Below, piece by piece: positions 3,813 through 32,208 of a DNA stretch of 64,000 nucleotides. A program made the translations under genes and the position numbers. The notes beneath the pieces were generated by a model. It was given only the letters and a program-made list of their open reading frames with translations, ran no database searches and had not been told where the DNA came from. Origin of the DNA: Escherichia phage wV7. Every line of letters starts with the position of its first letter. Within the stretch, counting starts at the first letter, position 1. The stretch is taken from the sequence record NC_019505.1. One strand, given 5' to 3'.

Positions 3813-4048
3813 TGGAAGGTTTAATTGAAGCTATTAAATCAAACGACCTCGTAGCCGCTCGTAAATTATTTGCTGAAGCCATGGCTGCAAGAACGACTGA
3901 TTTAATCAAAGAAGAAAAAATCACTATCGCTCGTAATTTCTTAATCGAGGGTGAAGAACCTGATGACGAGGATGACGACGAAGATAGCGATGATGATAAA
4001 GACGACAAAAAAGACAAAGACTCTGATGAAGACGAGGATGATGAATAA
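3812..4048 (+). CDS. 67: Prohead core protein gp67 with acidic C-terminal tail
   Basis: 78 aa, D/E-rich low-complexity C-terminus; position between 20 and 68 as in T4. Confidence 0.8.
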
Positions 4049-4473
4049 TGATTCTAATCCCTGAAACTCATGAATTAGTTCTCGAGAATGTCGAAGCACT
4101 TATTCCTGAAGCACAGGGTCGCTTTGACGAGTTGTCTTCTGCTTTAAATAAAGACGATATAAATAAAATTATCGAGAATATGCTTGATGATGAAACTGAT
4201 TTAGCGGTTGCATTAGCTTCTATTAATGAAAATATGCCGTTAAATGAATTTATCGTTAAACATGTTTCTGCCCGTGGTGAAATTACTCGCACTAAAGATC
4301 GCAAAACCCGCGAACGTAATGCATTTCAAACTACCGGGTTGTCTAAAGCAAAACGTAGACAAATTGCTCGTAAAGCTACCAAAACGAAGATTGCCAATCC
4401 AGCAGGTCAATCTCGTGCTCAGCGTAAGCGTAAAAAAGCTCTTAAACGCCGTAAAGCATTAGGATTAAGCTAA
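4048..4473 (+). CDS. 68: Prohead core protein gp68
   Basis: 141 aa, basic C-terminus; start overlaps gp67 stop; T4 synteny. Confidence 0.8.
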
Positions 4474-23198: not shown

Positions 23199-25256
23199 CT
23201 ACATTTTGAACTTTTTAGACATTCCGTTGATGTTAACCAAAGAAGCTAAGATTTGAGAAACTTCGTTTTCCTCTTCTTTTGATTCTTCTACAAGGAATTG
23301 ATTAAATCCAGCCATTGGACGAACTTCACCAGTTTCCATTAGATGGTCGCCATCATATACTGATTCTTCTAATTGTTCAGAAGGAGGAACGATTGTACCT
23401 TCGATTAGATACTTGTTATAAGCAGTTTCTTTCATAAAGTAAGTACTTACTTTATTAATCTTCAGTAAAATTCCACGTGGTAGAATAACTTCAGCTTCTG
23501 ATGGAAATCCTGACAAATGACCTGGAACGATAACTTTAACTCGTTCAGCTCCTTTAATTACCATACCCACGCTAGTTTCAGCATCTTCATTAGCATATGT
23601 AGAATGACTACCCATATGCATCAAATCTTCTGCATCAACGGAACCTTCTCCTTCACCAGAAAATACTGCTCCGGAATTATCTAAGGCCATATAATTTTTA
23701 CCATACTCACCAAAGATATTTGGTTTAAGTGATGTCGATACGAAGTTCTTGAAATAGAACATTTTATTTTCAATGTTATGACGCAAAGTTTTAAAAGTAA
23801 CTTCTTGTCCACGGTAAAGTGTAGTTCCTGGAGGAAGAACTGAACCTTTAGCGAATGCAGAATCCAGCGTCTCAATATGTTTAATAGCTCGTTCCATATA
23901 TTCTTCACGTGTAGAATCAGGTTTACCTAAAAGGAATGAGTTCATTTCAACATACGAATCTGCGCAATAATCTTCAATTACATCAGACTCAGCCTGAGTC
24001 AATCCTTTTGGAGTTACTTCAGTGCTTGCATATTCATACGCCTGAGCAGCGGATTCATCAATTAATTTATAAATGCCATTCATGACAAATTGAATAATAG
24101 CTGTCTTTTCATCTGGCGTAGCTTTAGAACCTTTAACTAAATCATTGACAATTTTCTTAATAACATCAAAGCTATTAGAAATATTAATGTCAGCAAGATC
24201 GCTTAAAATTTTATCAGTTTTATAATCAAAAAATTCTTTATTCTTTAAATATTCTTGAGAACTTTGATATGTTATATCGCTCTGCAACTTGATAGATGGA
24301 TCACGTAAACGTGCATGGGCTAATGCAATATGATTTCGGAAGCTTTCTAGTTCATAATCGTTAGATTTAAAACGAGAAGCACTTCTCATACCACCGATAG
24401 CTCCTTTGCTGAAGTTTGAACCAATCTGAATAACGCCAGAGTTCATTGGTCCTTCTGCTTTATATACCGGAACTTTAGATTCAAACTCTTGATATTTCTT
24501 AGCAGCGAAGCTATCACCCTGAAGTGAAGCATCAACAGTAGAATATTGAGCTTGTGCTGCTAATCGACGGCTAATTTTAGTTTTCTGAATAACAGCTTGA
24601 TCCGTACGCTTATCATTTTCTAAAGCAATAGAAGCAGCAACTGCGACAGCTTTAGGAACAGCATTACCTGTTTTAACGTCTACATAAACATCACCAACCT
24701 TTGATTCAACTTTTGTGAATAACTCAGTTGAAATAGGAGGTACACCTGGAATGTCTTCTAAATTGGCATTTTTACGGTAAACCATAATATATGCATATTT
24801 CTTATCATAGTCCCAGATTTCCTTTAAAAGAACATATCGACCTGCTCCTTTAGTACGTACTAAACGGTCAGCAATAACTTGCATTTGACGAGCAGCGCCG
24901 TTTGTTTTACTTTTTAGTACGCGGAATAGGCATGCATCAATTTTATACTGTTTCATTGTTTGAAGAGCAGTATCAAAAACCGCATTAATGACGCCAATTG
25001 GATTTCCACCCAAGTTTTTAAGCTTAACTAACGATAATTTCTCGTTGACGCCTATCATTACGATATGCATCATTTTGTCGCCTGGCTTAACGTTTTTATT
25101 CGTATCACCGCCAGAGGTGTATGTACAAAATCTAAATCCAGGAAGCACGCTTTCTTCACCGGCTTGAATAGCAAAAATTTGTGGTATTTTATGCTTAGGA
25201 TTTAAGTTAACAACCGGCGCCGAAGCGCCGTCAAATAATTCTGTAATAAGTTCCAT
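23199..25256 (-). CDS. Alt-like ADP-ribosyltransferase paralog (685 aa)
   Basis: N-terminal ~225 aa nearly identical to the upstream paralog; R-S-E ART motifs (YRGQ, FVSTSL, EAEVILPRG); start 3 nt after the upstream stop with AAGGA SD. Confidence 0.85.
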   Translation of the reverse strand: MELITELFDGASAPVVNLNPKHKIPQIFAIQAGEESVLPGFRFCTYTSGGDTNKNVKPGDKMMHIVMIGVNEKLSLVKLKNLGGNPIGVINAVFDTALQTMKQYKIDACLFRVLKSKTNGAARQMQVIADRLVRTKGAGRYVLLKEIWDYDKKYAYIMVYRKNANLEDIPGVPPISTELFTKVESKVGDVYVDVKTGNAVPKAVAVAASIALENDKRTDQAVIQKTKISRRLAAQAQYSTVDASLQGDSFAAKKYQEFESKVPVYKAEGPMNSGVIQIGSNFSKGAIGGMRSASRFKSNDYELESFRNHIALAHARLRDPSIKLQSDITYQSSQEYLKNKEFFDYKTDKILSDLADINISNSFDVIKKIVNDLVKGSKATPDEKTAIIQFVMNGIYKLIDESAAQAYEYASTEVTPKGLTQAESDVIEDYCADSYVEMNSFLLGKPDSTREEYMERAIKHIETLDSAFAKGSVLPPGTTLYRGQEVTFKTLRHNIENKMFYFKNFVSTSLKPNIFGEYGKNYMALDNSGAVFSGEGEGSVDAEDLMHMGSHSTYANEDAETSVGMVIKGAERVKVIVPGHLSGFPSEAEVILPRGILLKINKVSTYFMKETAYNKYLIEGTIVPPSEQLEESVYDGDHLMETGEVRPMAGFNQFLVEESKEEENEVSQILASLVNINGMSKKFKM

Positions 25257-27384: not shown

Positions 27385-27389
27385 AAATT

Positions 27390-27407
27390 AAAGGCCCGAA
27401 GGCCTTT
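27390..27407 (-). terminator. Hairpin after the 62-aa ORF, upstream of alt
   Basis: Transcribed strand AAAGGCC-TTCG-GGCCTTT followed by AATTTTAT. Confidence 0.5.
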
Positions 27408-27594
27408 AGTAATCTAGTGGTAAGAGAGTACGATATATTTCAAACTTTGGTCCTTTTTCATAGGCATCAAATGTTTCTGTAAATTTATTGTAAGCATATG
27501 CATCTACAAATTCGAGAATGACTTGTGATACAGAAGTAGAAACATCTCCACCTTCTTTTTGAGCAATGACAATTGTTTCTAAGTAAGCTTTCAT
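27406..27594 (-). CDS. Hypothetical protein (62 aa) between gene 30 and alt
   Basis: ATG overlaps ligase stop (ATGA); acidic small protein. Confidence 0.55.
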   Translation of the reverse strand: MKAYLETIVIAQKEGGDVSTSVSQVILEFVDAYAYNKFTETFDAYEKGPKFEIYRTLLPLDY

Positions 27595-29054
27595 AAACCA
27601 GTTACCTCATGAAAATCGCCAAATACATCCTCGAATGTATTAGCTTTAGTTTTATCTTCACGTAAACGAATCGCAATCGGAAGAAATAATTTAACGTAAT
27701 CAGTGCGGCCATCAGATTTTAACCAACCGTTGCATTCGCACTCTAGAATTTTTCCAATATAATAATTTTGGTTTTCCATAATGCGAGTACGGTCAAGTTC
27801 ATGCGATTTTACACCAGCTTTATCTTTTAAGCCTGAACCAGCATTTACTTTAATTTTTCCACACTCTGACTCAAGAATAAATCCACCCGCTTTAGTAGGG
27901 TCTTTACGGTGAGGATAAATTCCTACAATTTTTAAATCAACATCAATTACTTCTTTAAATTTATAAAGATTTTTTGAACGAGCATTTTCCCATAATCCAT
28001 CGATATTTTTGAGAATAATACCTTCAAGACCTTGGTCAATATACTTTTTATAAATTACCTTAGCTTCATCTAGGTTATTTACTACCTGGTTTTCAATTAA
28101 AATTACTTTATCATAACCTGATGTCATTTGTTCTAGTTTAGAAAAACGTACATCATATTTCAAACGAAATGCAGGAAGACCGTATATTTCTACCAACGGG
28201 ACATAATCCCAGACCTGAAACTTCATGCATTGAGCTTCTTTTTCAGAAATGGTTCCCTTTAAAGATTTATTAGCGATTCCATTAGAAGTAGTACGTGATT
28301 CAGCTACTTCGGCGAATTCTTTAGCTTTACTAATTTCAGGATAAGCATCAAAAAGAAAATCTAGGCCTTCTGGTTCCTTTTCAACTTGCTCATGGTATAC
28401 CAATTCGCCATCAATTAACACACCTTCTGGATGAATCTGGCGAGCTTCTGCAGTCATTTTGATTAACTCTTCCTTGAGAAGATCTAATCCTAGATATTCA
28501 TTACCAGCTCGTGATAAAAGACGAACATCATCTAATTCATCACCTCTGACTTCAGCAAAGCACCGAGCTCCATCAGCTTTTAACTGCGCAAAAGCTGGAA
28601 ACTTGATATTCTTACTAATGCCTTTTTCATCATAAGAACTTGCCAGCATTTGAGGTTGTTCAGGAATTAAACCTGGCCAAACTTTGTTTGCAATAGATAC
28701 TGAAGCACCGCATTCAAGGTCTCGCATCATCACCCGACGCAAAACTTCAACATCATCTTTTTTACCGTCAGCAATATATCCAGTTAATTCCTCAATTGCC
28801 GCATTTCCGGTCAATTTCCGAGTAGCTAACGTGAATTCAATGAAGTCAAGCATATCGGTAAGAGTCAACATTCCAAAACTCTGGGTAGCAATACCAGGTT
28901 TAGGCCATTTCTTGATATAATACTGTAACCCACGAGAATAAGTCAGACGATATACTCGTTTAAGCAATTCATTATCTTTATTCTTTTCAAGAATTGCTTG
29001 CTTCTGCTTAGTTGAACCAATAGATGCTATTTCGTTCAGAATTTTAAGAATCAT
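27591..29054 (-). CDS. 30: DNA ligase gp30 (487 aa)
   Basis: Length 487 aa as T4 DNA ligase; adenylation lysine motif region K-A-D-G; synteny next to alt. Confidence 0.9.
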   Translation of the reverse strand: MILKILNEIASIGSTKQKQAILEKNKDNELLKRVYRLTYSRGLQYYIKKWPKPGIATQSFGMLTLTDMLDFIEFTLATRKLTGNAAIEELTGYIADGKKDDVEVLRRVMMRDLECGASVSIANKVWPGLIPEQPQMLASSYDEKGISKNIKFPAFAQLKADGARCFAEVRGDELDDVRLLSRAGNEYLGLDLLKEELIKMTAEARQIHPEGVLIDGELVYHEQVEKEPEGLDFLFDAYPEISKAKEFAEVAESRTTSNGIANKSLKGTISEKEAQCMKFQVWDYVPLVEIYGLPAFRLKYDVRFSKLEQMTSGYDKVILIENQVVNNLDEAKVIYKKYIDQGLEGIILKNIDGLWENARSKNLYKFKEVIDVDLKIVGIYPHRKDPTKAGGFILESECGKIKVNAGSGLKDKAGVKSHELDRTRIMENQNYYIGKILECECNGWLKSDGRTDYVKLFLPIAIRLREDKTKANTFEDVFGDFHEVTGL

Positions 29055-29320
29055 TGTTCATCCTTTAGAGTTTGGTTTACAGCTCTATTATAAATCAATT
29101 CATCATTAAGCTCAGTCAAAGACTTGTGGTACGTGGTTCTAACTTTATTTCCTTGCATCCAGTGCTTGACGTAAATGAAACCTTGCTCTACACATTTTTT
29201 AAAAATTCGTTCGTCTTTTTGAGCTCGGAATTCTGGATTGCATCTAAAAAATTGATTTACGTGACCGTAATCACGTGTAGTATTACCTTCATTTTCATAA
29301 ATAGTATGAACAACAAACAT
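29051..29320 (-). CDS. Hypothetical protein (89 aa, 30.1-like position)
   Basis: ATG start overlapping upstream stop; no motif recognised. Confidence 0.6.
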   Translation of the reverse strand: MFVVHTIYENEGNTTRDYGHVNQFFRCNPEFRAQKDERIFKKCVEQGFIYVKHWMQGNKVRTTYHKSLTELNDELIYNRAVNQTLKDEQ

Positions 29321-30156
29321 TAGAATGCTCCTTGGAAAATATTATCACCACTAGTAGGTCTATTATACAAATACTCTATGCCACCGGGTTTAATATAGTT
29401 CCATGTCTGAAACGGATGCGTCTGATATGGATGATATAGATTATAAGGATTAAATCCAGGAGTTCTCCAGGTAGTGTTCCAAGGAAAAGAATCGTTTTTA
29501 ATCATCTTTTCAATTACATCTTTTATAGCTTTTTCACTATCAAAACTTTCTTTATTTTCCTTCGATGGAAAAAGCTTATTCTCTACATCATTCCATGTAT
29601 AAACTCGCTGCGCAGTTTTTGGAATACTGTCACGCTCCCCTCGAGCCATCCAATAAACAGGAACATTTAATATTTCACTCGCGTGATCGCAGTGGTGAGC
29701 GAGATCGTCAATATAACAAATTACGTTATATTTCTCTTTTGCCTTTTTGAACAACTCTTCTTTTGAAGAATCATGACCACACATCAATACTTCTGAGAAG
29801 GCACCAGGAAAAAGAGCATTCAAATTAAATTGACGATTTAGCAGAGCGTCAATAGAATCACCCAATGCTGTAACAGCTACAAAATTATAATCTTCTTTTA
29901 ATTTGTTAATTACACACAGGGCATCTTTATACGGAGACAAGTAACGAATAAAATCTGAACGATTATACTTTTCGATTAATTTAACACCAAGTTCTTCATC
30001 GCAATTAAAGAGCTTACCAGGAGAAATAAATTTTTCGTCCTGAATCATTTTTAAAATATGTTCCAACGGAAGATTATATTTTTGGGCAAAATAAGGAAGG
30101 CCCGATTGCCAGCTTAAACACACCCCGTCAATATCAGTCAAAATAGTAGGCTTCAT
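29320..30156 (-). CDS. HAD-superfamily hydrolase-like protein (278 aa, 30.2-like position)
   Basis: HAD motif I LTDIDGV near N-terminus and a YIDD motif later. Confidence 0.6.
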   Translation of the reverse strand: MKPTILTDIDGVCLSWQSGLPYFAQKYNLPLEHILKMIQDEKFISPGKLFNCDEELGVKLIEKYNRSDFIRYLSPYKDALCVINKLKEDYNFVAVTALGDSIDALLNRQFNLNALFPGAFSEVLMCGHDSSKEELFKKAKEKYNVICYIDDLAHHCDHASEILNVPVYWMARGERDSIPKTAQRVYTWNDVENKLFPSKENKESFDSEKAIKDVIEKMIKNDSFPWNTTWRTPGFNPYNLYHPYQTHPFQTWNYIKPGGIEYLYNRPTSGDNIFQGAF

Positions 30157-30611
30157 AGAGAGTCTCTTAATAGGTTTAACACATCAATAAATTCAGCTTC
30201 GGTTAGTATTGTATCATCTTTTGTTAGACCACTAGCCATGCTATGCTTCAAAACTTTTCCTTTCGAGGCTAGTAATGCATCACGAAAGCCCTTGTTTTGA
30301 ATCGCTGCTTCAAAATATGCATTTGTGTACAACTCTTTCCACGCTGGTGAGTATCTTGAAAACGGAACTCCAAGCCAGAAGAGGGTCCCACGGTCCTGAG
30401 CTCTTGCATAAGACCTTCCAGCTTGTTGGGCGGCAAGTCCGGATAACCCAAATATACGTCTTTGCTGCTCAACATTTTTCACCTTGCACCCTTGGAGAAA
30501 TCCTTCAAGACCTCCAAATTGGATACCATCCATAACAAAAGGCCATTGAGCGAAATTACTTAATGCACACGATGGCCATCTAAAATTGCTTCTAATCTCT
30601 AACTCAGGCAT
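30153..30611 (-). CDS. NADAR (YbiA/DUF1768)-like protein (~152 aa, 30.3-like position)
   Basis: LSNFAQWPF...DG...F..GLEGFLQGCK resembles the YbiA/NADAR core; ORF-track start 30617 is TTG, ATG at 30611. Confidence 0.6.
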   Translation of the reverse strand: MPELEIRSNFRWPSCALSNFAQWPFVMDGIQFGGLEGFLQGCKVKNVEQQRRIFGLSGLAAQQAGRSYARAQDRGTLFWLGVPFSRYSPAWKELYTNAYFEAAIQNKGFRDALLASKGKVLKHSMASGLTKDDTILTEAEFIDVLNLLRDSL

Positions 30612-30810
30612 TTTCAATGCTTATAATTTCAACATCAGCCCAATGACCATAGCAAGGAAGACGAAATTCAACTGGCCAGTTAGGGTCCTTTTCTAATATA
30701 ATAGACTTAACTTGTGGTTCTTCATGTTCATCAGTATATGGATTTTTATCTGTTACTTTATATGTGACCTTAATGTACTGAATTCCAAAAATCTTATTAA
30801 TTATATTCAT
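30604..30810 (-). CDS. Hypothetical protein (68 aa)
   Basis: ATG start; tightly packed with neighbours. Confidence 0.5.
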   Translation of the reverse strand: MNIINKIFGIQYIKVTYKVTDKNPYTDEHEEPQVKSIILEKDPNWPVEFRLPCYGHWADVEIISIENA

Positions 30811-31004
30811 ACTAATTCCTTTAATCCGTAAATAGGAGATAATTCATCACCCATACGAAGGTCTTCATTTCCATCTACCCAGGAAACAATATAAGCCTCT
30901 TTTATTTGAACACCACTCCATTTAAATGGAGGTAGAACCTTAGAAATTAATCCAGGTATACCAACTCCCTTTAATTCAACAGTTTGACCTAAAAAGAATT
31001 TCAT
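30807..31004 (-). CDS. Hypothetical protein (65 aa)
   Basis: ATG start overlapping upstream stop. Confidence 0.5.
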   Translation of the reverse strand: MKFFLGQTVELKGVGIPGLISKVLPPFKWSGVQIKEAYIVSWVDGNEDLRMGDELSPIYGLKELV

Positions 31005-31765: not shown

Positions 31766-32098
31766 TTATTTTACTACTTTCCAGTGCTTCATGTCAAGTT
31801 TACCAACTTTTTTCATCTTCTCAATCAAACGTTCGGCACGTTGGCGAGCTGTAACATAATACCATTCGCCTAATTCATTTTGTTCAATTTTTCCAACGAT
31901 TACTGTATTCAATTCATAAATCCAACCAGTAAAGAAATTATGAACTTGAATTGTAAAGGTGAAATCTGTTCCCATACCTTCTGTTGTTTCTACTTCAATA
32001 ATATCACCTTCAACTGCCATTAAGAACCACATAGTTTCATCATATTTACCATTGAAGCATTTAGTTTTAACTGCAGCGTTCAGATTAATCGTTTTCAT
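31766..32098 (-). CDS. Hypothetical protein (110 aa)
   Basis: ATG start; intact ORF. Confidence 0.55.
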   Translation of the reverse strand: MKTINLNAAVKTKCFNGKYDETMWFLMAVEGDIIEVETTEGMGTDFTFTIQVHNFFTGWIYELNTVIVGKIEQNELGEWYYVTARQRAERLIEKMKKVGKLDMKHWKVVK

Positions 32099-32172: not shown

Positions 32173-32203
32173 GGAAAATAAAAAAGGACTCCCGAAGGAG
32201 TCC
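32173..32203 (-). terminator. Rho-independent terminator (minus strand)
   Basis: Transcribed strand GGACTCC-TTCG-GGAGTCC followed by TTTTTTATTTTCC, 5 nt after the 58-aa ORF stop. Confidence 0.7.
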
Positions 32204-32208
32204 TCAAC

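Follow-up and report, generated by a model that had tools for sequence, protein, structure and literature searches.

A 64,000-nucleotide stretch of the genome of Escherichia phage wV7 (sequence record NC_019505.1; the whole stretch is called the window here) carries two overlapping open reading frames (ORFs) that a first-pass annotation, made from the letters alone, had read as a HAD-like hydrolase gene paired with a NADAR (YbiA-like) gene. With the nearby ligase and Alt ADP-ribosyltransferases, the pair was proposed to form an NAD-themed neighborhood for self-immunity or for counter-defense against DarT-like toxins. Does this locus encode one mechanism or two? The window belongs to a T4-like myovirus, and its two ORFs, both on the minus strand, correspond to T4 genes 30.2 and 30.3; over bases 29000 to 30900, the sequence matches that of Escherichia coli O157 typing phage 7 at 100% identity and those of RB-series and T4-type phages at 97 to 98%. 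Our analysis makes it highly probable that the 152-amino-acid (aa) gene is adfN, encoding the anti-DarT factor NADAR, and that gp30.2 is an independent NT5C-like HAD phosphatase, two genes and not one mechanism.

Both ORFs lie where they had been reported, on the minus strand, and contain the quoted motifs verbatim; each has more than 1,400 homologs in phage genomes and a confident structure model, which chance could not explain. The features on which the identification of AdfN depends are the following.

30153-30611, minus strand: gene 30.3 = adfN, 152 aa
30504-30506, minus strand: adfN E36 codon (GAA), catalytic
30483-30485, minus strand: adfN K43 codon (AAG), catalytic
30243-30245, minus strand: adfN His123 codon (CAT), phage-clade residue
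30269-30475, minus strand: internal out-of-frame ORF within adfN, 68 aa, counterpart of T4 30.3', which the T4 annotation describes as [quoted passage not shown]

The gp30.3 protein matches Pfam family PF08010 (Phage_30_3) over the complete profile (positions 1 to 138 of 138) with an E value of 2.7e-70 and 235 bits against a cutoff of 36. It is identical to T4 gp30.3 at 149 of 152 positions (98%), with P2S, L114Q, and M125I as the only differences, and shares with it the length, E36, K43, H123, an intact C-terminal helix, and the position between 30.4 and 30.2. The ORF listing starts the gene at an in-frame TTG at 30617 (154 aa); the start that is used biologically is the ATG at 30611 (152 aa), in agreement with the T4 annotation and the published numbering of E36 and K43. 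The protein contains LSNFAQWPFVMDGIQFGGLEGFLQGCKV, which is the SNFxxWP...DG...F..Q..K core. E36, K43, and His123 (E38, K45, and H125 in the 154-aa numbering), together with G35 of the 154-aa numbering, are invariant in the family alignment. In the structure model, His123 lies in the last β-strand (residues 122 to 125), and the C-terminal helix (residues ~138 to 151, or 140 to 153 in the 154-aa numbering) is intact. As none of the catalytic residues is missing and the C-terminal helix is complete, the AdfN of the window is predicted to be active.

The NADAR relationship of gp30.3 is visible by fold, weak profile matches, and literature only. Searched alone against Pfam, NCBIfam, and PDB sequences, the protein gave no significant NADAR match, so that fold comparison was needed; the similarity to TIGR02464 (E value of 0.17, 12 bits against a cutoff of 73.7) stayed below threshold. 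PF08719 was matched by 3 of 10 relatives, with a best E value of 0.0031, and the best PDB match of the 10-sequence family profile was YbiA, weakly, at an E value of 0.048. The profile alignment places LSNF..WP..DG....E..LQ..K onto YbiA residues 29 to 79 and pairs LEGFLQGCK with SEHYFQAQK of YbiA, which keeps the catalytic Glu and Lys of the E-x-x-x-Q-x-x-K segment. Both this alignment and the invariance within the family bear out the call of a NADAR/YbiA-fold enzyme with catalytic Glu and Lys, and gp30.3 was found to belong to the NADAR superfamily. The first-pass annotation had proposed to judge that call by a PF08719 match or by the conserved Glu and Lys. The two residues are there and the match is not; relying on PF08719 would have misled, because Pfam files gp30.3 in the separate family PF08010. 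The phrog_652 profile is 296 positions long and gp30.3 spans only positions 128 to 272 of it, so that an N-terminal extension may be present in some members.

The counter-defense role is correct and already published. Johannesman et al. (Nat Commun 2025; PMC11825919) traced the ability of T-even phages to resist DarTG1 to gene 30.3, which they renamed adfN, for anti-DarT factor NADAR. Without adfN, T4 and T2 no longer plaque on DarTG1 cells, while the deletion mutant plaques normally on cells that lack DarTG1; the RB69 allele is frameshifted, lacks the last helix, and is inactive, and ectopic AdfN rescues RB69 (PMC11825919). The substitutions E36A and K43A impair the protein, and purified AdfN strips ADP-ribose from DNA (PMC11825919). 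No contact between AdfN and DarT1 was seen in a two-hybrid assay, and DarTG2 was not countered (PMC11825919). Guanine-specific de-ADP-ribosylation by T4 gp30.3 was demonstrated in vitro in an earlier study (Toxins 2024; PMC11125620), the methods of which give the T4 construct as residues 1 to 208, yet the gene encodes 152 aa. In an independent T4 transposon sequencing study from 2025, 30.3 was lost under DarTG1 (log2 fold change of -7.25, q = 0). The fold, chemistry, and anti-DarTG1 role of AdfN were thus known from publications of 2024 and 2025: the activity and the phenotype were established by other groups for the T4 protein, which is 98% identical, and our contribution is the identity, fold, residues, and synteny of the window gene, with the breaks in that synteny.

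Put together, these data suggest the following course of events. The adfN product, an orphan, antitoxin-like NADAR enzyme, is made early in infection. Host DarT1 ADP-ribosylates guanine bases of the phage DNA and so blocks its replication. AdfN then hydrolyzes the N-glycosidic bond of guanine-ADP-ribose by means of E36, K43, and the phage-clade His123, releasing ADP-ribose and restoring a replicable template, without binding DarT1. As AdfN does not act on thymidine-ADP-ribose, it is not an anti-DarTG2 factor.

AdfN differs from its relatives in both context and active site. There is no DarT ADP-ribosyltransferase gene beside the NADAR gene, the neighbors being 30.4 and 30.2, and PADLOC reported no defense-system match for gp30.3 or gp30.2; AdfN is an orphan NADAR and not part of a DarTG toxin-antitoxin locus. 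In this it is unlike the DarG1 NADAR of DarT1-NADAR systems (Geobacter lovleyi, 8bat), as the phage has no DarT partner, and it is unable to substitute for DarG1 when cells are not infected (PMC11825919, PMC11125620). The charged residue of the last strand is Glu in YbiA and Asp in BC4488, with His as the hallmark of phage NADARs (PMC11125620); His in AdfN accordingly replaces the Asp of the BC4488 family (Schuller et al. 2023, cited in PMC11125620). Compared with E. coli YbiA, PF08719, and TIGR02464, gp30.3 has His for Glu and falls below every curated threshold, and it serves anti-defense, whereas YbiA serves riboflavin damage control.

The second protein, gp30.2, was examined in the same way, and its features are these.

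29320-30156, minus strand: gene 30.2, 278 aa, N-terminus MKPTILTDIDGVCLSW
29566-30156, minus strand: HAD phosphatase core of gene 30.2 with a helical C1-type cap, residues 1 to ~197
30133-30135 (D8 codon) and 30127-30129 (D10 codon), minus strand: gp30.2 motif I, D8-x-D10-G-V
29320-29565 including the stop codon (tail 29323-29565), minus strand: C-terminal extension of gp30.2, residues ~198 to 278

The strings LTDIDGV and YIDD quoted for gp30.2 are present, the latter within VICYIDDLAHH. All four catalytic HAD motifs (DxD, S/T, K, and DD) were found, with T96 as motif II, K132 as motif III, and D150-D151 as motif IV, on a Rossmannoid HAD core with a cap that is modeled with a predicted local distance difference test (pLDDT) score above 90 over residues 1 to 195; the chain is disordered after residue ~225. 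An alignment of 34 homologs shows no variation at D8, D10, G11, and K132 and conservation of 90% or more at T96, D150, and D151, which upholds the assignment of the 278-aa protein to the HAD superfamily of hydrolases; D8, D10, R108, and K132 are invariant among 86 remote relatives. In HAD enzymes, an Asp at +2 in motif I sets phosphatases and mutases apart from dehalogenases, and by this rule gp30.2 would be a phosphatase or mutase.

Narrowing the HAD call required a wider family. Against Pfam, NCBIfam, and PDB sequences, gp30.2 itself gave only sub-threshold noise (thiamin pyrophosphokinase, E values of 0.01 to 0.1; dNT-1, E value of 1). In favor of a nucleotidase, its stretch DGVCLSWQSGL aligns with DGVLADFESGL of deoxyribonucleotidase. 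The link to NT5C emerged only after the family had been widened by an exhaustive profile search of representatives, which returned 1,318 cluster representatives with E values of ≤1e-3, mostly stand-alone proteins of 190 to 220 aa. In the remote set (the 86 members, 21 to 45% identical), Pfam matches were to NT5C (PF06941) in 38, PF00702 in 19, and PF13419 in 16, with a best PF06941 E value of 4.2e-10. Their joint profile matched 3bwv, a putative 5'(3')-deoxyribonucleotidase, over the full length with an E value of 3.6e-6, followed by the pyrimidine nucleotidases Sdt1/SSM1, xanthosine monophosphate (XMP) phosphatase, and mitochondrial dNT-2. Beyond its orthologs, gp30.2 has named neighbors in the viral structure library that are mostly "5' nucleotidase." As gp30.2 stays below the PF06941 threshold, its link to NT5C is transitive only. 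Compared with NT5C proteins (PF06941; human cdN/mdN; Staphylococcus epidermidis 3bwv), it shares the HAD core and helical cap, the DxDGV motif I, the aromatic residue at +8, and SGL, but has no Pfam match of its own and carries an extra tail of 80 residues. Judged by its motifs and these profile links, gp30.2 is a predicted Mg-dependent HAD phosphatase of the NT5C-like branch, which refines the HAD call, and its substrate is most likely of the nucleoside monophosphate type.

In the tail, a single predicted helix precedes a disordered stretch with many Pro, Trp, and Tyr residues that ends in GGIEYLYNRPT (pLDDT of 39 to 63 over residues 225 to 278), and the tail is absent or different in many homologs. 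A motif [IVLT]EY[LWYF]..[QRK]P[TS], of the GTGIEYL..QPT type, is found in 16 of the 57 long-tailed homologs, whereas other T4-like lineages end in ...LRAYYG, ...LLNKVTANDS, or ...PGGTALLGMASLPIITG, and the motifs of other clades are Pro/Trp-rich. The tail looks like a lineage-specific docking peptide. Its IEYLY motif may be similar to peptides of the LDFLF type that bind the T4 sliding clamp, a likeness to which we gave no weight.

A phage nucleotidase with an anti-defense role has a precedent. Dmp of phage T5, a HAD deoxynucleoside monophosphate (dNMP) phosphatase (deoxynucleoside-5'-monophosphatase), is an anti-Kongming factor (bioRxiv 10.1101/2024.12.20.629578), and gp30.2 is likewise a phage HAD-type phosphatase from early in infection. 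We tried and rejected gp30.2 as a Dmp homolog: hhalign gave a probability of 2%, with likeness in motif I and no detectable relationship beyond it. No mention of T4-like phages was found in the Kongming preprint (bioRxiv 10.1101/2024.12.20.629578) with the terms searched, and literature searches on gp30.2, on HAD proteins of T4-like phages, and on HAD proteins in anti-defense found nothing, including no biochemical data on gp30.2.

Whether 30.2 and 30.3 work together has to be judged from their setting and from genetics. The remaining genes of the neighborhood are as follows.

30604-30810, minus strand: gene 30.4, 68 aa, without a family match
29051-29320, minus strand: gene 30.1, DUF3045, 89 aa (PF11243, E value of 1e-63)
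27591-29054, minus strand: gene 30, ATP-dependent DNA ligase (PF01068, E value of 3e-32, and T4 annotation)
27406-27594, minus strand: alt.1, 62 aa
25260-27356, minus strand: alt, ADP-ribosyltransferase, 698 aa (PF03496, E value of 1e-37)
23199-25256, minus strand: second alt paralog, full-length, 685 aa (PF03496, E value of 7e-20)

Starts and stops overlap in ATGCCTGA (30.4/30.3), ATGA (30.3/30.2), TAATG (30.2/30.1), and ATGA (30.1/30). Overlaps of this kind are typical of the early-gene strings of T4. The adjacency and translational coupling of genes 30.3 and 30.2 stem from their place in a conserved early-gene block, 30.4-30.3-30.2-30.1-ligase-alt, which is kept in Tequatrovirus, Mosigvirus-type phages, and related contigs (L001 to L014). 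A shorter block in a Morganella-type phage (L016) has no detected 30.4 or 30.1, and Acinetobacter phage 133 keeps 30.3-30.2-ligase-alt. The ligase is ATP-dependent, and it therefore falls outside the NAD theme into which it had been drawn.

A two-gene module, in which gp30.2 would be the T-even-specific helper of AdfN or would process the product that AdfN releases, could account for several of these observations: the ATGA shared by the 30.3 stop and the 30.2 start, the order 30.3-30.2-ligase-alt that persists from Tequatrovirus to the Morganella-type phage and Acinetobacter phage 133 at 36 to 46% identity, and the near-identical taxonomic distributions of the two genes (homologs in 1,509 versus 1,451 phage records, ~1,450 for gp30.2). 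It would also suit the finding that AdfN-T4 does not neutralize DarT1 in uninfected cells, barely rescues T5 and Bas25, and is fully active only in T-even infection, which led the authors to propose that it requires a further T-even protein (PMC11825919); some phage-encoded helper or context is thus involved. However, when T4 transposon mutants were sequenced under DarTG1 in the published study, the 71 TA sites in 30.2 were not depleted (log2 fold change of -0.12, P = 0.61), while 30.3 was lost. Both genes were nonessential on K-12 and neutral in M9 minimal medium. Synteny is also broken. In Jiaodavirus KPV15 (L030, NC_055715), the NADAR gene, at 4001 to 4450, has tRNA genes on both sides and is far from the ligase/30.2 region; in two Klebsiella phages the NADAR and HAD genes are tens of kilobases apart (~59 kb in PP597384). 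Of nine full distant IMG/VR loci (L017 to L025), eight have no gp30.2 homolog within 10 kb, and the ninth (L019) has a weak, 26.5% identical HAD gene just upstream of the NADAR gene; no gp30.2 homolog was found in the partial locus L026. These breaks show the 30.3/30.2 adjacency to be inherited synteny and not obligate coupling. Moreover, ADP-ribose, the product of AdfN, offers a HAD phosphatase no phosphomonoester, and AdfN alone de-ADP-ribosylates DNA in vitro (PMC11825919, PMC11125620). According to the transposon data, 30.2 cannot be a partner that AdfN requires, and on these data and the broken synteny we rejected gp30.2 as its missing helper. A functional pair or NAD-themed module of gp30.2 and AdfN, as first proposed, is not supported, and we consider the two-gene module very unlikely.

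The same genetics speak to a metabolic role, in which gp30.3 would act like YbiA as an N-glycosidase on riboflavin intermediates or soluble ADP-ribose-derived signals with gp30.2 as its paired phosphatase. The weak TIGR02464 match of gp30.3, a Joint Genome Institute (JGI) record calling one gp30.2 homolog "FMN phosphatase YigB," and the preference of Iyer et al. (2022) for soluble ADP-ribose derivatives as substrates of phage NADARs would all be in line with it. However, genetics and biochemistry show de-ADP-ribosylation of DNA and a DarTG1-specific phenotype, the third catalytic residue is His and not the Glu of the YbiA family, and neither 30.2 nor 30.3 has a minimal-medium phenotype, so that we give this role hardly any credence.

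Both Alt-type genes lie 2 to 7 kb downstream of 30.2/30.3 on the same strand. This closeness to adfN, together with early expression, would fit a self-immunity function, in which AdfN, with or without gp30.2, shields phage DNA or nucleotides from collateral ADP-ribosylation by the Alt paralogs, ModA, or ModB; Iyer et al. (2022) described the T4-like NADARs as early genes that sit and are expressed with ADP-ribosyltransferases. Yet adfN is nonessential on K-12, with 27 of its 28 TA sites hit, and alt (log2 fold change of -0.01), modA, and modB showed no interaction with DarTG1 in the transposon data. Alt-type enzymes are protein arginine ADP-ribosyltransferases. In contrast, NADARs are specific for guanine-ADP-ribose (PMC11825919, PMC11125620), and the normal plaques that the adfN deletion mutant forms without DarTG1 (PMC11825919) show that the gene is dispensable there. 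Self-immunity is therefore unsupported, and we regard it as extremely improbable. The tandem alt paralogs are both full-length and 41% identical to each other (BLASTP E value of 1e-161); T4 has a single alt with short alt.-1 and alt.-2 as remnants of an old duplication, and in related contigs the number of tandem copies ranges from one to three. The alt.1 product matches PF24647, "Phage blade protein," with an E value of 2e-29.

In the T4 transposon data, gene 30.4 is the only gene besides 30.3 that was significantly depleted under DarTG1 (log2 fold change of -1.79, q = 0.014); it was neutral in M9 medium, and its depletion is discussed in neither the AdfN paper nor the transposon study. On inspection of the sequence, no evident Shine-Dalgarno sequence was seen ahead of adfN, and the ATG of adfN overlaps the stop of 30.4, which makes lost translational coupling, a polar effect on adfN, the likeliest cause of the depletion. 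Alternatively, the dependence of AdfN-T4 on T-even infection might find its explanation within this block, with gp30.4 as a true helper that activates AdfN or directs it to its target; as a separate matter, gp30.2 might be a Dmp-like anti-defense nucleotidase, starving an immune pathway that relies on nucleotides, and its variable tail might dock it to a partner from phage or host. We think this reading unlikely, if less so than the other alternatives.

Several points weigh against reading the locus as AdfN beside an independent phosphatase. AdfN-T4 works fully only during T-even infection, which implies a phage helper or context, and single-gene transposon data leave room for a redundant contribution of gp30.2. 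The activity data on AdfN come from T4 and T2 alleles, and the window allele carries its three substitutions relative to T4. By themselves, the window sequences reach neither PF08719 (gp30.3) nor any HAD/NT5C threshold (gp30.2). The substrate of gp30.2 is entirely inferred, with no 30.2 phenotype in LB, M9, or DarTG1 conditions, and the substrate specificity of HAD enzymes is notoriously hard to predict.

As to transcription, TTGACA-18-TAAAAT at 31768-31797 on the minus strand, just upstream of 30.7, is the closest of the region's matches to a sigma-70-like promoter (11 of 12 positions), and terminator-like hairpins lie at 32184-32205 (minus strand), upstream of 30.8, and at 27389-27408 (minus strand), after alt.1. 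These would bracket one early transcription unit from 30.7 to alt.1. The scan for promoters and terminators found a total of 25 sites versus 29.3 expected from shuffling, that is, no excess, so that the individual sites and the unit they would delimit are only suggestive.

What remains for gp30.2 is a protein with an intact active site that is conserved in ~1,450 phage genomes and has shown no phenotype in LB, M9, or DarTG1 conditions. For gene 30.3, almost all deposited T4-like records, including the RefSeq record of T4, say "hypothetical protein"; its identification as adfN adds little as a discovery and is useful for the annotation of T4-like phages. As the adfN allele of the window is predicted to be functional, the phage should resist DarTG1-carrying hosts.

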